Below, piece by piece: positions 11,328 through 40,814 of a stretch of 64,000 nucleotides of DNA; position 1 is the stretch's first letter, and each line of letters opens with the position of its first letter. The notes beneath the pieces were generated by a model. That model made no database searches, was not told the origin of the DNA, and saw only the letters and a program-made list of their open reading frames with translations. This DNA is from Candidatus Binatia bacterium (GTDB taxonomy: Bacteria; Desulfobacterota; Binatia; HRBIN30), in NCBI GenBank assembly GCA_038245295.1, contig JBBRSP010000012.1, positions 64,001 through 128,000 of the forward strand, written 5' to 3'. A program made the position numbers and the translations under genes.

Positions 11328-11741
11328 ATGCCTGACTACAGTTTGTTCGGCGACGAACACGTCGCCAAGTACGAAGCGACCGGCGGTAAGGTCGGTCACG
11401 ATTGGAACGACACGAGCTGCCTGATCCTGCACACGCGTGGCCGCAAAAGCGCCACGCTACGCAAGTTCGCGCTCATCTACGGGCGCGATGGCGAGGATTA
11501 CGTACTCATCGCCTCAAAGGGCGGCGCACCCGACAACCCTGGTTGGTACAAGAATCTCGTTGCCCATCCCGACGTCGAGATCCAGGTGTGGGACAAAGTG
11601 ATTCCCGTCACCGCCCGCACCGGCACGGCGGCCGACAAGCAACGCGTCTGGCCGGCGATGGCTAAGCAGTGGCCGGGGTACGATGAGTACCAGCGGAACA
11701 CGAAGCGGGACATTCCCGTCGTCTTGTTGCGGCCGCGCTGA
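11328..11741 (+). CDS. Deazaflavin (F420H2)-dependent nitroreductase family (Ddn-like)
   Basis: LILHTRGRKS, VLIASKGGAPDNPGWYKNLVAHPDV, YDEYQRNTKRDIPVVLL. Confidence 0.9.
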   Translation: MPDYSLFGDEHVAKYEATGGKVGHDWNDTSCLILHTRGRKSATLRKFALIYGRDGEDYVLIASKGGAPDNPGWYKNLVAHPDVEIQVWDKVIPVTARTGTAADKQRVWPAMAKQWPGYDEYQRNTKRDIPVVLLRPR

Positions 11742-11899
11742 GCAAGGGCGCGACGGCGCTGACCAGGAGAGAGTCCATGGAGCGAAAGACGCAGCTGTCG
11801 ATCGAAGACGGCCGTGGACGAAGAGCTGCGGCTAGAGGCTGACGACTAAGTCCACACCCCAAATATCCAACAGAAATTCTACGATTCGCACTTGCCACA

Positions 11900-11920
11900 A
11901 AGCGAAAATTAGGCGAAAAC
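11900..11920 (+). promoter_or_regulatory. Candidate DNA-damage operator: direct repeat GCGAAAA with 11-bp period just upstream of imuA
   Basis: aaGCGAAAAttagGCGAAAAc ending 8 bp before the GTG start. Confidence 0.4.
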
Positions 11921-11927
11921 TGCCGCT

Positions 11928-12728
11928 GTGCTGGTCTCCACCTCCAACCAAGCACTGGCGGCAGACCACCCTCCTGCCGCCGGCGAGACGCGCCCCTTGC
12001 AGCGGGCGCGTCTCGCCGCCCTCCCCTTACCCGGGCGGATTCATTTTGGCCTGACCACTCCGGAGCCGCTGCGTCGTTTATCGACGGGGCATACCGAGCT
12101 CGACGCGTTGCTCGCCGGTGGTGTGCCGCGCGGACGCATCAGTGAAATTCTCGGCTCGGCTTCTTCGGGGAAGACTACCGTGTTGTTGTCGTGTCTGGCG
12201 GCGGCGACGCGGCGGCAGGAAGTCGTAGCGTATGTCGATATCGCCAATGCCTTGAGTCCGGAGTCGGCGGCGCGGGCCGGCACCGATCTACGGCGTTTCC
12301 TGTGGGTGCGGCCGCCACACATCAAAGCCGGCTTCAAATGTGCCGAGTTATTGCTGCAAGCCGGCGGCTTTACCCTGGTGGCGCTTGATCTCGGCAACCA
12401 TCCGCCACAACGTCTGGCCGCCAATATCTGGCCGCGGCTACTGCACGGTGCCGAGCAATCTCAAACCGCCTTTATTGTTCTCGCCCGTGCGTGTGCGGCC
12501 GGCAGCTTTGCGGTGTTGAGTTTGCGTTTGCGGCCACAGCGGCCGCGTTGGTTGAACGGCGCCTGGCCATTGTTCGATGGCCTCGACAGTCGGGCGGTTC
12601 TGGAGCGCAACAAGCTGGGGATTCCCGGGGAGGGTTCGGTGGCGTTGCGGATGGGGCCTATGGGACAGATGGGACTTGAGGGGCGGATGGATGCGGAGGG
12701 ATCTGATCTTTTTTGTGCGGGCACGTGA
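11928..12728 (+). CDS. imuA: RecA-like ImuA protein
   Basis: LSTGHTELDALLAGGVPRGRISEILGSASSGKTT; DLRRFLWVRP; directly upstream of imuB. Confidence 0.85.
   Translation: MLVSTSNQALAADHPPAAGETRPLQRARLAALPLPGRIHFGLTTPEPLRRLSTGHTELDALLAGGVPRGRISEILGSASSGKTTVLLSCLAAATRRQEVVAYVDIANALSPESAARAGTDLRRFLWVRPPHIKAGFKCAELLLQAGGFTLVALDLGNHPPQRLAANIWPRLLHGAEQSQTAFIVLARACAAGSFAVLSLRLRPQRPRWLNGAWPLFDGLDSRAVLERNKLGIPGEGSVALRMGPMGQMGLEGRMDAEGSDLFCAGT
12651..12690 (+). repeat. 9-bp periodic tract (atgggaNNN) in frame in the imuA 3' end
   Basis: atggggcct atgggacag atgggactt gaggggcgg atgg encodes MGPMGQMGLEGRM. Confidence 0.55.
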
Positions 12729-14240
12729 GTGCGGCTCGCTTGTCTCTATGTTCCGCAATTTCCTTTGGCGGCGCTGCTGCGCAGTTCTCCGGAGCTCCGC
12801 GGCGAAGCCGTCGTCGTGGTCGAGCAGATTGCGCCGCGTGGCCGTATTGTTGCTGTCTCGGAAGCGGCCGAGCGGCGTGGCATTCGTTACGGCTCGAGTC
12901 TGGCGCAGGCGCATGGGATCGACGCCGAGGTGCAGGCGCGTGTCGTCTCGGTCGACACCATCGCCGCAGCCCAGGCTGCCCTGTGTGATGCCGCGGCTTC
13001 GTTCACGCCACGCCTCGAAGACGCCACCGAAGGTCTGGTCTATCTCGATCTGAGCGGACTAGGCGCGCTCTTCGAATCGGAGTTGCAACTAGCCCATGCA
13101 CTGTCGCGGCGCGCCTGGCAGCTTGGGTTGGAAGCCCAGGTTGGGGTCGGCAATTCCAAGAATGCGGCGCTGCTGGCGGCACGCCATGGCGGCGGCGTGC
13201 GGGTGATCCCGCCGCAAGAGGAATGGAGCTTCCTGGCGCCGGTGGCGATCAGCGCCCTCGAACCGAATCCGACGTTGGCGGCAACACTGCAGCGCTGGGG
13301 TATCCGCACGGTGGGCGATCTGGTGTCGCTGCCGGTGCAACAGATCGGCGCGCGCCTGGGTCCGGAAGGCACCGCCCTGTGGCATCGCGCTCGTGGGGAT
13401 GAGGATCGTCCGCTGGTGGCGCGCACCCTGCCGCTGCACTTCGAAGAAGGACAAGATCTCGACTATGGCATCGACAATCTGGAGCCGCTGCTGTTCGTGG
13501 CGCGCGGCCTGTTGGATCGACTGATCACACGCCTGGCGTTGCGCGGACTCATCTGTGGCGACTTGCGTTTGTCGTTACGTCTGGCCACACGCGGGCGTGA
13601 CGACCGCACCGTCACCATCGCCGCGCCGAGTAATGATCTCAAAGCCCTGCTGGCGTTGCTGCGCCTGCACCTCGAAAGCCATCCACCGGCCGCCGCAATC
13701 GAAGGCATCCGCCTGACGGCCCTGCCCGAACGCCTACGCGCTTCCCAACTCGATCTCTTTCTCCCACCCGGCCCGGCACCGGCCAAACTCGCCGTGACCC
13801 TGGCCCGCCTGTCGGCCCTGTGCGGCAGCGAACACGTCCGCGCCCCGGCCCTGGCCGACTCGTATCGACCGGATGCGTATCAGGTGGAGGAGTTCAGGGT
13901 CCAGGAGCAACAAGCGGTTGCGCGGTTAGGCGGTTACGCGGTCAAGGGAGCAACAACTCGCATAACCGCCAACCGCCTGGCTTTAGCTCTACGCGCCCTC
14001 CGACCGCCGCACGAGATCGAAGTATTCTGCAATCGCGACCGCCCCGACTTCGTGCGCGGGCCCCACTTTGCCGGACGTGTCGTGCAAGCCGCCGGCCCAT
14101 GGCGTGTGCACGGCGAGTGGTGGAGCGAAGGTGCCTACCTGCGCGACTACTACGATGCCTCGCTGAGCGACGGTGGGGTGTATCGCCTCTACTACGACGT
14201 GACGACACGCCGTTGGTTCGCGGATGCGCAGTACGACTGA
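12729..14240 (+). CDS. imuB: ImuB, inactive Y-family polymerase homolog
   Basis: MRLACLYVPQFPL, VYLDLSG, clamp-binding QLDLF, C-terminal AGPWRVHGEWW...RDYY. Confidence 0.9.
   Translation: MRLACLYVPQFPLAALLRSSPELRGEAVVVVEQIAPRGRIVAVSEAAERRGIRYGSSLAQAHGIDAEVQARVVSVDTIAAAQAALCDAAASFTPRLEDATEGLVYLDLSGLGALFESELQLAHALSRRAWQLGLEAQVGVGNSKNAALLAARHGGGVRVIPPQEEWSFLAPVAISALEPNPTLAATLQRWGIRTVGDLVSLPVQQIGARLGPEGTALWHRARGDEDRPLVARTLPLHFEEGQDLDYGIDNLEPLLFVARGLLDRLITRLALRGLICGDLRLSLRLATRGRDDRTVTIAAPSNDLKALLALLRLHLESHPPAAAIEGIRLTALPERLRASQLDLFLPPGPAPAKLAVTLARLSALCGSEHVRAPALADSYRPDAYQVEEFRVQEQQAVARLGGYAVKGATTRITANRLALALRALRPPHEIEVFCNRDRPDFVRGPHFAGRVVQAAGPWRVHGEWWSEGAYLRDYYDASLSDGGVYRLYYDVTTRRWFADAQYD
13914..13981. 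repeat. GCGGTTAC-type 8-mer array plus inverted AACCGCC arm, in frame within imuB
   Basis: gcggttgc gcggttag gcggttac gcggtcaa ... taaccgccaaccgcctggc. Confidence 0.75.
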
Positions 14241-14250
14241 AAAAGATTTC

Positions 14251-14275
14251 ACCGCAGAGGCGCAGAGCCGCCGAG
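14251..14275 (+). repeat. Left inverted repeat flanking the GxxExxY gene
   Basis: accgcagaggcgcagagccgccgag; 23/25 match to the reverse complement of 14701-14725. Confidence 0.85.
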
Positions 14276-14307
14276 CGAGAGACCGCAGAATTTGAAAGAG
14301 TACAACA

Positions 14308-14727
14308 GTGAAACGGGATCCTTTGACGAATTCAATCATCGGTGCAGCGATTGAAGTGCATCGGATCATGGGTCCCGGTCTCCTCGAAAGCATTTACGAG
14401 GATTGCCTGGCCTACGAACTGTCGCAACGTGGCCTTAGCTTCGAACGACAATACCCCCTCGTCATCACCTACAAAGGTCATCCAGTGGGAGCAAATTTGA
14501 AAATTGATCTTTGGGTCGAGAGGCGAGTAGTCGTTGAATTGAAGTCGCTGGCAACGTTGTTACCCGTCCATGAGGCGCAACTACTCACCTATCTCCGATT
14601 GAGTGGTTCTCCCGTCGGATTGCTCGTCAACTTCAACGTCCTCCTTCTCCGAGACTGCATCAAACGCATGGTTCATCACTACCAGACCCCTCATTCCGAT
14701 CTCGGTGCCTCTGCGCCTCTGCGGTAA
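14308..14727 (+). CDS. GxxExxY protein (PD-(D/E)XK nuclease superfamily)
   Basis: IIGAAIEVHRIMGPGLLESIYE; IDLWVERRVVVELK; HEAQLLTYLRLS...GLLVNF. Confidence 0.95.
   Translation: MKRDPLTNSIIGAAIEVHRIMGPGLLESIYEDCLAYELSQRGLSFERQYPLVITYKGHPVGANLKIDLWVERRVVVELKSLATLLPVHEAQLLTYLRLSGSPVGLLVNFNVLLLRDCIKRMVHHYQTPHSDLGASAPLR
14701..14725 (-). repeat. Right inverted repeat flanking the GxxExxY gene
   Basis: ctcggtgcctctgcgcctctgcggt, directly followed by the TAATG stop/start overlap with dnaE2. Confidence 0.85.
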
Positions 14728-17700
14728 TGAAATTCATCGAGCTCCACACGCGCAGCGCGTTCAGTTTCCTCGAAGGCGCTTCCCTCCCCGAGGGTCTCGT
14801 TGGGCGCGCCGCCGAGCTCGGCTACCCGGCGCTGGCCCTCAGCGACCGCGACGGCCTGTACAGCGCTCCACGTTTTCATCAAGCCGCCAAGAAGGCCGGT
14901 GTGCGGGCGATCATCGGGTGTGAGGTTACGCTGGTGGATTCTCATCCCAGCCTAGCCGCCAACCGCCTTGTCCTGCTGGCTTCCAACCGCAAAGGCTACC
15001 AAAACCTCAGCCGCCTGATCACGCAGACCAAGCTGCGCGCCGCCAAGGGCGCCTCGTCGGCGACCTGGAATGATCTGGAAGAGCACAGTGAAGGGCTCAT
15101 CTGTATTACCGGGGATCCATTGGACCACGCGGTTACGCGGCTACGCGGTTACGCGGTTCACGAAGAGGTGGATCGCCTAACCGCCTACCGCCTACCTATA
15201 TTGGATCGCCTACGTTCCCTCTTCCCCAACCGCCTCTACATCGAGTTGCAACGTCACCTTGATCCCGAGGAGGAGCGGCGCAATCGTTTCCTCATCGATG
15301 TCGCGACGCACTATGGCTTGCCGTTGGTGGCGACCAACGATGTGCGTCACGCCTTGCCGCAAGGCCGGCGATTGCTCGACATCCTCACATGCATTCGCGG
15401 CAAAACCACACTCGACGCCGCCGGGCGCTTGTTGCTCAACAATGCCGAGCGTCATTTGAAGTCGCCGGCTGAGATGGTGCGGCTGTTTCGCGATCGCCCC
15501 GACGCCATCACCAACACCCTGCGCATCGCCGAGCAATGCGAGTTCACACTCGCTGATCTCGGCTATCGTTTCCCCGACTATCCCTTGCCCGCCGGCGAGA
15601 CGCCGATGGGTCATCTGCGTGAGCTCACCGATGCCGGAGCACGCGGACGTTACGGCACGTTGAACACGCGGGTGAAGCGGCAACTCGAGCATGAGCTCAA
15701 CATCATCGGCAAGCTCAACCTGGCCGGCTACTTCCTGATCGTCTGGGACATCGTCGAGTTTTGCCGGCGCCACGGCATCCTGGCGCAGGGACGCGGCTCC
15801 GCTGCCAACTCGGCGGTTTGTTATTCGCTCGGCATCACCGCCGTCGATCCAATCGGCATGGAGCTTTTGTTTGAGCGTTTTCTTTCCGAAGAGCGCGGCG
15901 AGTGGCCGGATATCGACATCGATCTACCAAGCGGCGATCAACGCGAACGCGTCATTCAGTACGTCTACCAGCGTTACGGCGAACGCGGCGCGGCGATGAC
16001 CGCCAACGTCATCACCTACCGCACGCGCAGCGCCGTGCGGGAGGTCGGCAAGACCCTCGGTTTCTCGTTGGAGCAAGTCGACAAACTCTCGAAGCTGCTG
16101 CGGCGCTTCGAGTTCCGCGACAGCGACGACGATCTCGCCGTGCAGTTGCGCGAAGGCGGCGTCGACCCCCAGGCGCCACGTGTGCAGTTGCTGGTCGACA
16201 TGGTGCAGCAGATCCAGAACCTGCCGCGCCATCTCGGCCAACACTCCGGCGGCATGGTGATCGCGGCGGGGCGGCTCGACGCCGTGGTGCCGCTGGAGCC
16301 GGCGTCGATGCCCGGGCGTGTCGTCGTGCAATGGGACAAAGACGACTGCGCCGACCTCGGCATCATCAAGGTCGATCTGCTCGGCCTCGGCATGATGGCC
16401 GTGTTGGAAGAAACCATCCCGCTGATTCGTGAGCACGAAGGAGCCGACATCGACCTGGCGCATCTACCGGCCAACGATCCGAAGACCTACTCGATGCTGC
16501 AGCAGGCCGACACCATCGGCGTGTTTCAGGTCGAAAGTCGGGCTCAGATGGCGACCCTGCCGCGCATGAAGCCGACGTGTTTCTACGATCTCGTCGTCGA
16601 GGTAGCGATCATCCGACCAGGCCCGATCGTCGGCCAGATGGTGCATCCCTATCTCAATCGTCGCAACGGCCGCGAAGCGGTAACCTATGCCCATCCCGAC
16701 CTCGAGCCGATCCTCAAGCGCACTCTCGGTGTGCCGCTCTTCCAGGAGCAACTGTTGCGCATGGCCATGGTGTTGGCCGGCTTCACCGGCGGCGAAGCCG
16801 AGGAGTTGCGCCGCGCCATGGGTTTCAAACGTTCAACGGAGCGTATGCAGCAGATCGAAGAGCGACTGCGCAGCGGGATGTCCAAGCGCGGCATCAGCGG
16901 CGAGGCGCAAGATGAGATCGTGCGCGGCATCACCTCGTTTGCACTCTACGGGTTCCCCGAGAGTCACGCCGCCAGCTTCGCCTTGCTGGCCTATGCCTCG
17001 GCGTATCTGCGCGCGCACCACCACGCCGCCTTCGTGTGCGCCATGCTCAACAACTGGCCCATGGGTTTCTACCATCCCGCGACTTTGGTGAAGGATGCGC
17101 AGCGGCACGGCGTGCGGGTGCTGCCGATCGATGTGATGCGCTCGGGGTGGAAATGCGGCTTGGAAAAGACACCACGGCGGCACGGAGACACGAAGGAGTT
17201 GGCCGTTCGTTTGGGGCTACGTTACGTCACTGGCCTGCGTGAGGACACGGCCAGGCGCATCGAGCGTGAGCGTGCCGGGGCGACATTTTGTTCGCTGCCC
17301 GACGTCGTTCATCGCTGCGACCTGCGTGACGACGAAGCCCAGACCTTGGCGCATCTCGGCGCCTTTGCCTCGCTGGGTCCGGCACGTCGTGAGGCCTTGT
17401 GGCAAGTCACCGCCATCCCACGAGAACCGTTGTTCCGCGGGACAACCTCCGCGCCTCCGCGTCTCCGCGGCGAAGAATCCCCGTTGCCTGAGATGTCCGC
17501 CCTGGACCGCACCTTGGCCGACTACAAAGCCAGTGGACTCACGGTGGGCTCACACATCGTCAAGCATCAACGGGAAGAACTCAACGCCGCCGGCGTTCTG
17601 CGCTCTGTCGATCTCAAGAACGCACGCGACGGGCGCTGGGTAAAGATCGCCGGCCTGGTCATCGTGCGCCAACGGCCGGGGACAGCGAAGGGCATGTGCT

Positions 17701-18035
17701 TCATCACGCTAGAAGACGAAACCGGCACAAGCAACGCGGCGGTGATGCCGAACGTGTTTCAAAGGTATCGCGCCACGATTCACACCGCGGCCATGCTGCT
17801 GATCGAAGGACCGCTGCAACAAAAGGATGGAGTCACACATGTGCTGGCACAGCGTCTGAGCGAGATTCATTTGCCACAACAACAGATCGCCCAGCGCGGC
17901 ATGGGTTATCGCATGCGCACCACGCCTCAGGACAATGAGCCAGCTCTGCAACCCCTCGACCCCCAACGCCCAACCTCCGACCCGGCGGCTCCTGTGGCCG
18001 CTTTCATCCCGCCCAAGTCGCACGACTTCCGCTGA
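14727..18035 (+). CDS. dnaE2: Error-prone DNA polymerase DnaE2 (ImuC)
   Basis: PHP domain (ELHTRSAFSFLEGAS), QGRGSAANS, WPDIDID, FPESHAASFA, OB fold (VRQRPGTAKG), C-terminal SHDFR resembling the DnaE2 SRDF motif. Confidence 0.95.
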   Translation: MKFIELHTRSAFSFLEGASLPEGLVGRAAELGYPALALSDRDGLYSAPRFHQAAKKAGVRAIIGCEVTLVDSHPSLAANRLVLLASNRKGYQNLSRLITQTKLRAAKGASSATWNDLEEHSEGLICITGDPLDHAVTRLRGYAVHEEVDRLTAYRLPILDRLRSLFPNRLYIELQRHLDPEEERRNRFLIDVATHYGLPLVATNDVRHALPQGRRLLDILTCIRGKTTLDAAGRLLLNNAERHLKSPAEMVRLFRDRPDAITNTLRIAEQCEFTLADLGYRFPDYPLPAGETPMGHLRELTDAGARGRYGTLNTRVKRQLEHELNIIGKLNLAGYFLIVWDIVEFCRRHGILAQGRGSAANSAVCYSLGITAVDPIGMELLFERFLSEERGEWPDIDIDLPSGDQRERVIQYVYQRYGERGAAMTANVITYRTRSAVREVGKTLGFSLEQVDKLSKLLRRFEFRDSDDDLAVQLREGGVDPQAPRVQLLVDMVQQIQNLPRHLGQHSGGMVIAAGRLDAVVPLEPASMPGRVVVQWDKDDCADLGIIKVDLLGLGMMAVLEETIPLIREHEGADIDLAHLPANDPKTYSMLQQADTIGVFQVESRAQMATLPRMKPTCFYDLVVEVAIIRPGPIVGQMVHPYLNRRNGREAVTYAHPDLEPILKRTLGVPLFQEQLLRMAMVLAGFTGGEAEELRRAMGFKRSTERMQQIEERLRSGMSKRGISGEAQDEIVRGITSFALYGFPESHAASFALLAYASAYLRAHHHAAFVCAMLNNWPMGFYHPATLVKDAQRHGVRVLPIDVMRSGWKCGLEKTPRRHGDTKELAVRLGLRYVTGLREDTARRIERERAGATFCSLPDVVHRCDLRDDEAQTLAHLGAFASLGPARREALWQVTAIPREPLFRGTTSAPPRLRGEESPLPEMSALDRTLADYKASGLTVGSHIVKHQREELNAAGVLRSVDLKNARDGRWVKIAGLVIVRQRPGTAKGMCFITLEDETGTSNAAVMPNVFQRYRATIHTAAMLLIEGPLQQKDGVTHVLAQRLSEIHLPQQQIAQRGMGYRMRTTPQDNEPALQPLDPQRPTSDPAAPVAAFIPPKSHDFR
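15127..15196. repeat. ACGCGGTT x4 plus inverted CCGCCTA arm, in frame within the dnaE2 PHP domain
   Basis: acgcggtt acgcggct acgcggtt acgcggtt ... cgcctaaccgcctaccgcctacc; related half-site gcctagccgccaaccgcct at 14950-14968. Confidence 0.75.
17170..17195 (+). repeat. GxxExxY-IR-like 9-bp-period arm in frame in dnaE2
   Basis: caccacggcggcacggagacacgaag (encodes TPRRHGDTK). Confidence 0.6.
17447..17474 (-). repeat. GxxExxY-IR-like arm, opposite orientation, in frame in dnaE2
   Basis: ctccgcgcctccgcgtctccgcggcgaa (encodes SAPPRLRGE), same pattern as ctctgcgcctctgcggt at the right IR. Confidence 0.65.
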
Positions 18036-18275
18036 GCGGCCTGACAAAATGCCCAATCCCGGATCGCGCCGCTGCCCGGCGTCGGCGCGCGAGACTGGCC
18101 TCAACCGTATCTTGCGGCGCTTGACCGCAGCAATTGGATCATGGCAACGCTGCCATGCATGGGGGAGGGGGGCGCTTCTGAAACCACTGGGTGAGGGTTC
18201 AGTCATTGTCGTCATTATTGGCTACACAAGCGCATTGGGACCGGCGATCCAGCGGCAACCCGCCGAGGCAGGCTC

Positions 18276-18812
18276 GTGATCGTCGATAGAAAGCTTTCAC
18301 GAGATGAGATCGAGGGGGTGTGGACCATCGACCGCAGCGAAGTGATCGATGGCATCTATTCTCTCGTCGACGGAGCCCTATTCCTCAACCGCGTTCACCA
18401 CGAGGTCAAAGGCTGGCCGCCCGGCGAAGCCGAGAAGTATACGCCCATTCTGCAATCCTGCCTTGATCAAGGCGGCTGGGACTACGGTCTATTTGACGAC
18501 GCTACCCTGATCTCCGTGGTCGTCTTGGCGGGTCGCTTCATGGGCACGGATTCAGATCAACTCCAACTCGAGTTTCTGCATGTCAGCAACCGCTACCGGC
18601 ACCGGGGGCTCGGCCAACAACTCTTCGCGCTGGCCGCGGGCGAAGCGCGCAAGCGCGGTGCGAAGAGTCTCTACATCTCCGCCACTCCGTCCGAGCGCAC
18701 AATCAACTTCTATTTGCGCCTCGGATGTGTGCTCACACCGCAGCCCGACCCGGAGTTGTTCGAATTGGAGCCGGACGACATCCACCTTGAATATCAACTT
18801 GCGGTGGATTGA
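18276..18812 (+). CDS. GNAT family N-acetyltransferase
   Basis: LHVSNRYRHRGLGQQLF; LYISATPSERTINFYLRLG. Confidence 0.85.
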   Translation: MIVDRKLSRDEIEGVWTIDRSEVIDGIYSLVDGALFLNRVHHEVKGWPPGEAEKYTPILQSCLDQGGWDYGLFDDATLISVVVLAGRFMGTDSDQLQLEFLHVSNRYRHRGLGQQLFALAAGEARKRGAKSLYISATPSERTINFYLRLGCVLTPQPDPELFELEPDDIHLEYQLAVD

Positions 18813-18872: not shown

Positions 18873-19121
18873 ATGAAGACACGACTCGTTCGTATCGGGA
18901 ACTCGCGCGGCGTGCGACTTCCAAAGCCGCTCATCGAACAGGCCGGCTTTACCGATGAAGTGGAGCTACAGCTGCGCGGGAACACAATCGTCATCGTGGC
19001 GAGCCCGGGGCCGCGCAGCGGGTGGGCCGAGGCTGCCCAGAAGCTACATGCCGAAGGCGGCGACCAATTGCTTGATCCACCGGCACCGACCCATTTCGAT
19101 GAAACCGATTGGAAATGGTAG
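18873..19121 (+). CDS. mazE: AbrB/MazE-family antitoxin
   Basis: MKTRLVRIGNSRGVRLPKPL; overlaps toxin start. Confidence 0.85.
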   Translation: MKTRLVRIGNSRGVRLPKPLIEQAGFTDEVELQLRGNTIVIVASPGPRSGWAEAAQKLHAEGGDQLLDPPAPTHFDETDWKW

Positions 19122-19450
19122 CCAAACGGACACCGCGGCGCGGCGAGGTATTTCTGGTAGCGCTTGATCCGACGCGCGGCAGCGAGATTCGTAAGACCCG
19201 CCCCTGCATCGTCGTGTCACCCGATGAGTTGAACGATTTTCTTCGCACAGTAGTTATTGTTCCACTCACAACGGCTGGACCGAAGTATCCGTTTCGCGTG
19301 CCGTGTCGTTTCGCAGGCAAGAGCGGCGACGTCGTCGTTGATCAAGCGCGCACGGTAGATCGCGAGCGCCTGGTGCGAAACCTCGGACGCTTGTCGCCAC
19401 CGACACTCGGACAAGTCCTTGCGACCCTTCAAGAGATGTTCGCGGCTTGA
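19115..19450 (+). CDS. mazF: PemK/MazF-family endoribonuclease toxin
   Basis: RGEVFLVALDPTRGSEIRKTRPCIVVSPDELN; DQARTVDRERL. Confidence 0.9.
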   Translation: MVAKRTPRRGEVFLVALDPTRGSEIRKTRPCIVVSPDELNDFLRTVVIVPLTTAGPKYPFRVPCRFAGKSGDVVVDQARTVDRERLVRNLGRLSPPTLGQVLATLQEMFAA

Positions 19451-40766: not shown

Positions 40767-40814
40767 ACCCCCAGGGTTACAGGGTTCCAGGGGCAAGTTG
40801 CAACAATCAACCGC

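Follow-up and report, generated by a model that had tools for sequence, protein, structure and literature searches.

Periodic foldback tracts and a GxxExxY cassette in an imuA-imuB-dnaE2 operon and its relatives

In-frame repeat tracts of the mutasome operon

The 64-kb stretch of DNA analysed here (the window; G000:C12:64001-128000) carries imuA, imuB and dnaE2 in the gene order of the SOS mutasome, a mutagenesis cassette whose control by LexA is well established, and all three genes contain short periodic repeat tracts that leave their reading frames open (Table 1). A small GxxExxY gene stands between imuB and dnaE2. Its open reading frame runs through the right arm of an inverted-repeat wrapper, and its stop codon overlaps the dnaE2 ATG by one base. 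The gene is enclosed by 25-nt inverted arms (14251-14275 and 14701-14725) that are 92% complementary and paired in the predicted fold, in agreement with an earlier note on this DNA, which had described a nuclease gene flanked by inverted repeats.

Table 1 Features of the operon in the window, and further sites of the CGAA-N7-CGAA box
Feature	Position	Strand	Remarks
CGAA-N7-CGAA direct-repeat operator	11900-11920	+	just upstream of imuA start
imuA (RecA-like)	11928-12728	+	
Single arm, 9-bp ATGGGA family	12651-12675	+	variable ImuA C-terminal tail
imuB (Y-family polymerase homologue)	12729-14240	+	
Complete 8/7-bp-period foldback, GCGGTTAC family	13914-13985	+	ImuB loop ~aa 395-418; orthologues variable there
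Left arm of GxxExxY wrapper, 8-bp period	14251-14290	+	begins 10 nt past imuB stop
GxxExxY gene (PD-(D/E)XK fold)	14308-14727	+	TIGR04256, 145 bits; PF13366/TIGR04256 family
Right arm of GxxExxY wrapper	14701-14725	+	
dnaE2, error-prone polymerase	14727-18035	+	PRK05672 above cut-off
Orphan right arm, GCGGTTAC family	14950-14968	+	DnaE2 loop 1, aa ~75
Complete GCGGTTAC-family foldback	15127-15196	+	DnaE2 loop 2, aa 134-157
Orphan left arm, GxxExxY-type 8-bp wrapper	17170-17195	+	DnaE2 loop 3, aa 815-823
Orphan right arm, GxxExxY-type 8-bp wrapper	17446-17474	+	DnaE2 HhH-OB linker, aa 907-916
Weak 7-bp-period tract, 14.4 bits	17953-17982	+	DnaE2 C-terminal tail; absent from the earlier note
Box sites at the lexA, intI and lhr promoters	G000:C3:172804, C36:1156, C31:34784		

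Tracts were sought with a detector built for periods of 7-11 and scored in bits. All tracts that the earlier note had named, six or more in imuA, imuB and dnaE2, were confirmed, and none disrupts its reading frame. For the arms at 17170 and 17447 it had given a 9-bp period; the measured period is 8. Of the 8-mer hairpins that it had listed, those at 13914-13985 and 15127-15196 do fold as hairpins (z = -4.8 and -3.7, respectively), whereas 14950 is a single arm. The folding excess is absent at each of the single arms (12651, 14950, 17170 and 17447). Standalone scores are weak for the tracts at 12651 (11.5 bits) and 17173 (13.0 bits), both of which were accepted through family membership.

Seven tracts in the window score at least 16 bits, and six of these lie in the mutasome operon, four of them in coding DNA. 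By comparison, codon shuffles of the three mutasome genes (n = 300) yielded no tract in 281 cases and one tract in 19. The seventh strong tract (40772-40792, 8-bp period) is alone, intergenic and flanked by two minus-strand genes. An AlphaFold model of DnaE2 places the window tracts in two β-hairpin turns, a low-confidence helical stretch and the HhH-OB linker; the predicted local distance difference test score (pLDDT) is 50-68 in loop 2 (aa 134-157) and below 50 in the linker, and is lowered in the turn of loop 1. The arms at 17170 and 17447 were also considered as one long-range stem, which was rejected because their inverted match is weak (score 9) and orthologues fill the two loops independently. 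No Rfam match was found in 11500-18500.

The earlier note had further suggested that the hairpins tune the mRNA. Under such a scheme, selection would favour them as RNA structures that keep the leaky expression of a mutagenic polymerase low, and two of the window tracts, as well as the cassette arms, do fold strongly as RNA. However, four of the six window tracts are unpaired arms, and the strand tests point the opposite way: among 89 hairpins the mRNA strand carries 55 G-U and 87 A-C mismatches, that is, no G-U excess, and the antisense (template) strand folds better in 42 of 60 hairpins of imuB and dnaE2 across relatives, the controls being symmetric. Selection for mRNA hairpins was rejected on these grounds, and we regard damping as very improbable. 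Stop avoidance accounts for only 9 of 80 A-C mismatches and thus for little of the template-strand bias.

Recurrence of tracts in the same loops of related genomes

Alignment with orthologues used 44 dnaE2 loci drawn from 60 related genomes, or 45 with the window. The five tract sites (DnaE2 aa ~70, ~135-160, ~812 and ~905; ImuB ~395) are variable loops that hold unrelated 7- or 8-bp families depending on the genome, and a tract was detected in dnaE2 in 22 of the 45 loci and in none of the other 23. Thus, the proposal that the tracts are inserts in variable loops holds among these relatives. The four DnaE2 loops vary even where no tract was detected, with a length standard deviation of 4-11 aa in 16 such DnaE2 proteins as against 0-0.7 aa in 20 DnaE1 proteins.

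In a paired-gene sample of this genome and 20 relatives, picked mainly as repeat-rich, dnaE2 holds 66 tracts in 72.5 kb, distributed over 20 of 21 genomes, and imuB 21 tracts in 30 kb, whereas dnaE1 has no periodic tract in 73.5 kb (0/21 genomes). The other control genes are similarly bare (mfd 0/77.5 kb; uvrA 1/51 kb; double uvrA 0/51 kb; polA 1/55 kb). The helicase gene lhr is a second host, with 11 tracts in 65.6 kb at 5 of 16 partly overlapping loci. Elements do lie directly upstream of dnaE1 in 4 of 19 loci, yet periodic tracts are never found inside it.

The same distribution was seen in samples not chosen for repeats. Eighty GTDB loci, mostly labelled as Acidobacteriota, were taken, of which 78 were counted after two duplicates had been dropped; the operon itself carried 0.447 tracts per kb, as against 0.045 in the DNA downstream of it and 0.027 in the DNA upstream, and 96 of 103 DnaE2 tracts map to aa 60-79, 800-839 and 880-919. 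Among 80 metagenome loci, 32 carry tracts, with 94 in 226.6 kb of dnaE2 and 4 in 106 kb outside. The nearest named relatives are labelled Deltaproteobacteria and Candidatus Binataceae. The in-frame tract pattern is real, lies well above chance and is general across at least two phyla. The earlier note had called the operon a recurrent landing site, and this is borne out by the unrelated families in the same loops of relatives, by two kinds of cargo gene at the imuB/dnaE2 junction (below) and by control genes without tracts.

The inserts could be retained since they alter the protein or the mutation rate, an idea that the available text of a 2013 paper (PMC3733652) offers as speculation for repetitive extragenic palindromic sequences (REPs) in repair genes. 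The hosts here are indeed genes of the DNA-damage response. Against this, the inserted peptides share neither sequence nor length (0 to ~170 aa), no tract was detected in 23 of the 45 dnaE2 genes compared, and the loops that hold the inserts are modelled with low confidence. We therefore consider such a benefit very improbable.

Repeat families, cargo genes and the CGAA-N7-CGAA box

Genome-wide, 408 tracts were counted: 262 intergenic, 29 at a gene edge and 117 within genes, as assigned by a simple in-house gene caller, in a genome of which coding DNA makes up 85%. Many of the 117 intragenic tracts are chance or protein repeats, with shuffled coding DNA giving 33 tracts compared to 90 observed in the first 25 of 129 contigs. 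The ATGGGA 9-bp family occupies 8 genome sites (0 in a reversed control), one of them well inside a gene; the GCGGTTAC family 14 sites (3 reversed), four well inside genes; and the GxxExxY-type 8-bp wrapper family (CGCAGAG/CACGGAG) 26 sites (4 reversed), with two well inside genes, both in dnaE2. The last type encloses GxxExxY genes, and an inverted pair of the 9-bp ATGGGA type brackets a four-helix-bundle (4HB) gene at G000:C14. The tracts are copies or leftover arms of inverted repeats of 7-10-bp period that wrap small GxxExxY or 4HB genes and are mostly intergenic. Nine strong internal coding tracts (at least 20 bits, period not 9) occur in the genome, three in imuB/dnaE2 and two in lhr. 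The enrichment at the mutasome for which the earlier note had proposed a test is thus found in coding DNA, where the families crowd imuB and dnaE2 against near-zero controls.

The 7-mer tracts of lhr are in frame at aa 1024-1050 (L105, G000:C31:37879-37955), with other families near there in four relatives. In-frame tracts (L104, G000:C2:237804 and 242982) also occur in two coding hosts that lack a box: the gene for a glycogen debranching enzyme holds the 9-mer family, and one for a kinase/cyclase-like protein holds a 7-mer.

It had also been suggested that the SOS polymerase makes the repeats itself, by slippage of DnaE2/ImuB at their own locus. Co-location is consistent with this, and long arrays do expand in some genomes. 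However, the families occur throughout the genome, chiefly between genes, and go with particular cargo genes, which they wrap elsewhere; many intact operons lack tracts; and a diffusible polymerase has no reason to favour its own gene. In addition, 4HB is found in Bacteroides thetaiotaomicron, a species that is not known to carry dnaE2. Of the explanations weighed here, this one appears to us close to untenable. Local (cis) spreading of units was likewise rejected: in this genome, neighbouring sites (<2 kb) hold the same family in 4 of 25 cases, only slightly above the 6% between contigs, and in G030 and G046 the operon carries the unit variant that is found genome-wide.

In relatives, periodic arms flank the majority of GxxExxY and 4HB copies. 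A GxxExxY cassette occupies the imuB/dnaE2 junction of the window, of six relatives (and one more in part) and of two metagenome loci; a 4HB cassette with 7-bp arms takes its place in one relative and seven metagenome loci. Seven of 45 GxxExxY copies from 25 genomes sit at this junction, and their proteins require three changes on the family tree, a single clade being marginally rejected by the approximately unbiased (AU) test (p-AU 0.044). No recognised transposase was found in the cassettes, whose cargo is PF13366/TIGR04256 or PF05635/TIGR02436, and no relative of GxxExxY was found among solved structures.

A second cargo site lies within dnaE2 itself. In eight relatives and six metagenome loci a complete PF05635/TIGR02436 (4HB) gene is nested in the +1 frame at the DnaE2 linker, where the window has the single arm 17446-17474. 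The host frame is free of stops across the nested gene in 14 of 14 cases as compared with 7 of 33 other copies, two of these seven being nested in other long frames. Consistent with this, a T before an AA/AG/GA codon occurs in 0 of 282 cases in 13 nested copies (one near-duplicate excluded) and in 55 of 590 in free copies. This stop avoidance in the host frame argues that DnaE2 is translated through the inserts. One nested 4HB gene has a stop in its own frame; among the hosts, one is frameshifted within an expanded right arm and another contains an assembly gap. Eight nested 4HB proteins form one clade (88/98), and the nested genes are scattered over the DnaE2 tree (7 changes versus a shuffled mean of 7.6). 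Site-specific homing was considered and rejected, given that the cargo (4HB) DNA tree is not resolved and vertical descent is not rejected (p-AU 0.25 and 0.20); therefore, one old insertion followed by many losses explains the pattern as well as homing does.

4HB genes nested out of frame were also seen in a Helicase_C/NOV_C protein (L250:587-3316, minus strand) and in a long frame ending in a Y1_Tnp domain (L234:2-1933, minus strand). A 4HB cassette with 8-bp arms lies immediately upstream of dnaE1 in L097, L102 and L103 (G049, G046 and G039).

The operon is preceded by a CGAA-N7-CGAA direct repeat. It is located ~8 nt ahead of the imuA start, a distance suggestive of a leaderless mRNA, and it is present in 34 of 34 imuA promoters. 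In this genome, the four best hits of a matrix built from 33 relatives, with the window excluded, are the promoters of imuA, intI (integron integrase), lexA and lhr, in that order. Boxes of at least 12 bits occur at 19/21 lexA, 12/22 intI, 5/13 lhr, 1/16 uvrA and 0/16 polA loci; in this genome recA and uvrA are without one. The LexA-type box GAAC-N7-GAAC has the same spacing. CGAA-N7-CGAA is likely the LexA box of a small regulon in this lineage, and the mutasome genes are likely to be repressed by LexA until DNA is damaged. The locus shares with the LexA-controlled mutasome its gene set and order and a conserved operator common to lexA and intI; it differs in the motif, which was not found in literature listings, and in the lack of a box at recA.

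As imuB, dnaE2 and lhr are served by the box, the coding hosts of tracts are box-bearing genes. The box does not suffice, however: 20 kb of intI coding sequence is free of tracts despite frequent boxes, which implies that a loop able to tolerate inserts is required as well. Elements occur in the flanks of lexA in 6 of 20 loci, of dnaE1 in 4 of 19 and of mfd in 2 of 19, the lexA value being not clearly above the other two. The proposal that any LexA-controlled gene is a target was rejected on both counts. The intI promoter region also contains a GCGGTTAC-family arm (L391, G000:C36:1302-1328), located ~150 bp past the box. In L394, L395, L401 and L410 (G046, G037, G040 and G007), intI follows dnaE2 directly, in the same orientation and without a box of its own, an arrangement that would make it the terminal gene of the mutasome operon.

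In the main rival explanation, the elements are coupled to the SOS response. Widespread micro-elements without a transposase, consisting of periodic foldback arms and a GxxExxY or 4HB gene, would lodge in the LexA-repressed mutasome, even nested out of frame in dnaE2; their cargo would be expressed upon damage and would insert or convert arms preferentially in genes then transcribed, re-seeding the same loops and other damage-induced genes and repeatedly remodelling the polymerase. In line with this, the cassettes of the operon lie on the sense strand, with the GxxExxY stop overlapping the dnaE2 start in the window; the seven GxxExxY copies at one junction are not one clade; lhr, the second host (5/16 loci), has a box here and in 5/13 relatives; nested 4HB genes are scattered over the DnaE2 tree; and the better folding of the template strand is consistent with a DNA-level process. 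By contrast, intI is free of tracts, the lexA flanks do not clearly exceed those of dnaE1, box and tract occur together in 2 of 5 tract-bearing lhr loci, the nested 4HB proteins are one clade for which vertical descent is not rejected, and most cargo copies lie outside SOS genes. On balance, SOS coupling seems possible but rather unlikely.

Probable tolerated passengers and comparison with known systems

We consider it fairly probable that the tracts are selfish foldback passengers kept by tolerance in length-variable loops of normally repressed, dispensable proteins. Directly observed are the family identity of the tracts, their intergenic bias, the use of the same loops in many genomes, the open host frame, the operator motif and the variability of the loops. 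In a mechanism compatible with these observations, elements would land at many places, among them the DNA just ahead of dnaE1, and either an empty hairpin or a full cassette (arm, cargo gene, arm) would enter a loop or junction. Copies that leave the host frame open would be the only ones to persist and be translated. Loss of the cargo may be frequent, reducing the element first to a hairpin and later to one arm, and an occupied site could be refilled or converted by the current variant of the genome. The cargo proteins (nuclease-fold GxxExxY and 4HB) may move the arms at the DNA level, as their association with the arms suggests.

Several points weigh against tolerance. It does not obviously explain why the hosts bear boxes, with five of the nine strong internal coding tracts in imuB, dnaE2 and lhr, and other long dispensable genes are without tracts. 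The imuB/dnaE2 junction was refilled by two unrelated cargo families. Loops that appear repeat-free may hold decayed inserts, so loop variability may be a consequence and not a cause. The dnaE1 gene of L102 has a 30-aa insert at ~aa 875, which is non-periodic and, like a shorter one in another dnaE1, was missed by the periodic detector. The closest metagenome relative is 67% identical and offers no pair of empty and filled alleles from which mobility, boundaries or target duplications could be read. Finally, the genomes are kin and not independent, and kinship inflates all counts.

Palindromic inserts in DnaE2 have been described before. Di Nocera, De Gregorio and Rocco (2013; PMC3733652) reported REPs in frame inside DnaE2 and repair genes, which were sometimes their sole coding hosts, and in its available text the cause is left open. 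The phenomenon is thus already in print for another repeat class, and the earlier note's view of an undescribed system holds only for the element class, on which no paper was found in the literature searched. Both kinds of repeat are palindromic, multicopy, mainly intergenic and found in frame in DnaE2. However, REPs are short stems tagged by GTAG or CGTC and tied to REP-associated tyrosine transposases (RAYTs), whereas the arms here have a 7-10-bp period and are tied to GxxExxY and 4HB, and uvr genes and polA are among the hosts listed in the available text (PMC3733652), whereas uvrA, polA and mfd are spared here. By inspection, the tag of REPs and REPINs (an unpaired GTAG or CGTC with a 5-13-bp stem) is absent from our families, which show periodic arms and bulged stems or no stem. 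A link to RAYTs is absent as well: the genome has five Y1_Tnp matches, and members of the three families flank none of them, although a lone unrelated 9-mer accompanies one.

Rickettsia palindromic elements (RPEs) are likewise palindromic inserts translated in frame in host proteins (PMC10969869, available text). An in-frame palindromic insert in a host loop is common to both, with translation here deduced from open frames. RPEs are described there as ~150 bp in length, with a conserved peptide, and as spread over unrelated genes; the tracts here measure 20-90 bp, encode unrelated peptides and are concentrated in imuB, dnaE2 and lhr. Moreover, a small set of loops in one operon is used again and again here by numerous families that are not related to each other, some of which bring along an entire second gene in another frame.

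Short-period arrays are also known as heptameric tandem repeats and as the short tandemly repeated repetitive (STRR) sequences of cyanobacteria. In the available text on Xanthomonas and Nostoc (PMC4692102), heptamer arrays often form convergent inverted pairs, lie mainly between co-directional genes and, as here, are under-represented in coding DNA. That text describes neither cargo genes nor a preference for dnaE2 loops, and the periods here are 7-10.

The cargo nested in the dnaE2 genes of relatives belongs to the family of the 23S rRNA intervening-sequence protein (PF05635/TIGR02436; PDB 2gsc, XCC0516) and is likewise closed by inverted arms. It differs in its location, which is not rRNA but the mRNA of a polymerase, where it occupies the +1 frame while the host frame stays open; the arrangement of a PF05635 frame between complementary arms was encountered in relatives only. 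We take the 4HB family to be akin to the protein Avd of diversity-generating retroelements. The terminal inverted repeats of insertion sequences and miniature inverted-repeat transposable elements have a counterpart in the wrapper arms of the window (25 nt, 92%). In the literature searched, which did not cover subscription journals and was available in part, we found no account of the wrapper-plus-cargo class, of a 4HB gene nested in dnaE2 or of the box, and the passage found on GxxExxY was an incidental mention.

The preference of palindromic repeats for DnaE2 and repair genes, unexplained in 2013, is now measurable in defined loops with the replicative polymerase as a paired control. The candidate operator names a further host, lhr, and candidate mobilising genes lie within the operon itself, which gives two common families of unknown function, GxxExxY and 4HB, a testable context. 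The tracts also map, by natural experiment, where DnaE2 and ImuB tolerate insertions. Further gains are an example of an entire gene contained in another frame of a DNA polymerase gene, and a likely LexA box for a lineage that has received little study. Should tolerance be the whole explanation, the finding would be neat but of modest weight, a contribution to the natural history of genomes.

The dnaE1 insert of L102 resembles another foldback family, and a shorter insert is present at the same place in the dnaE1 of L096. In the window, dnaE2 is followed by a GNAT gene and an ordinary MazE/MazF-type toxin-antitoxin pair (18873-19450).

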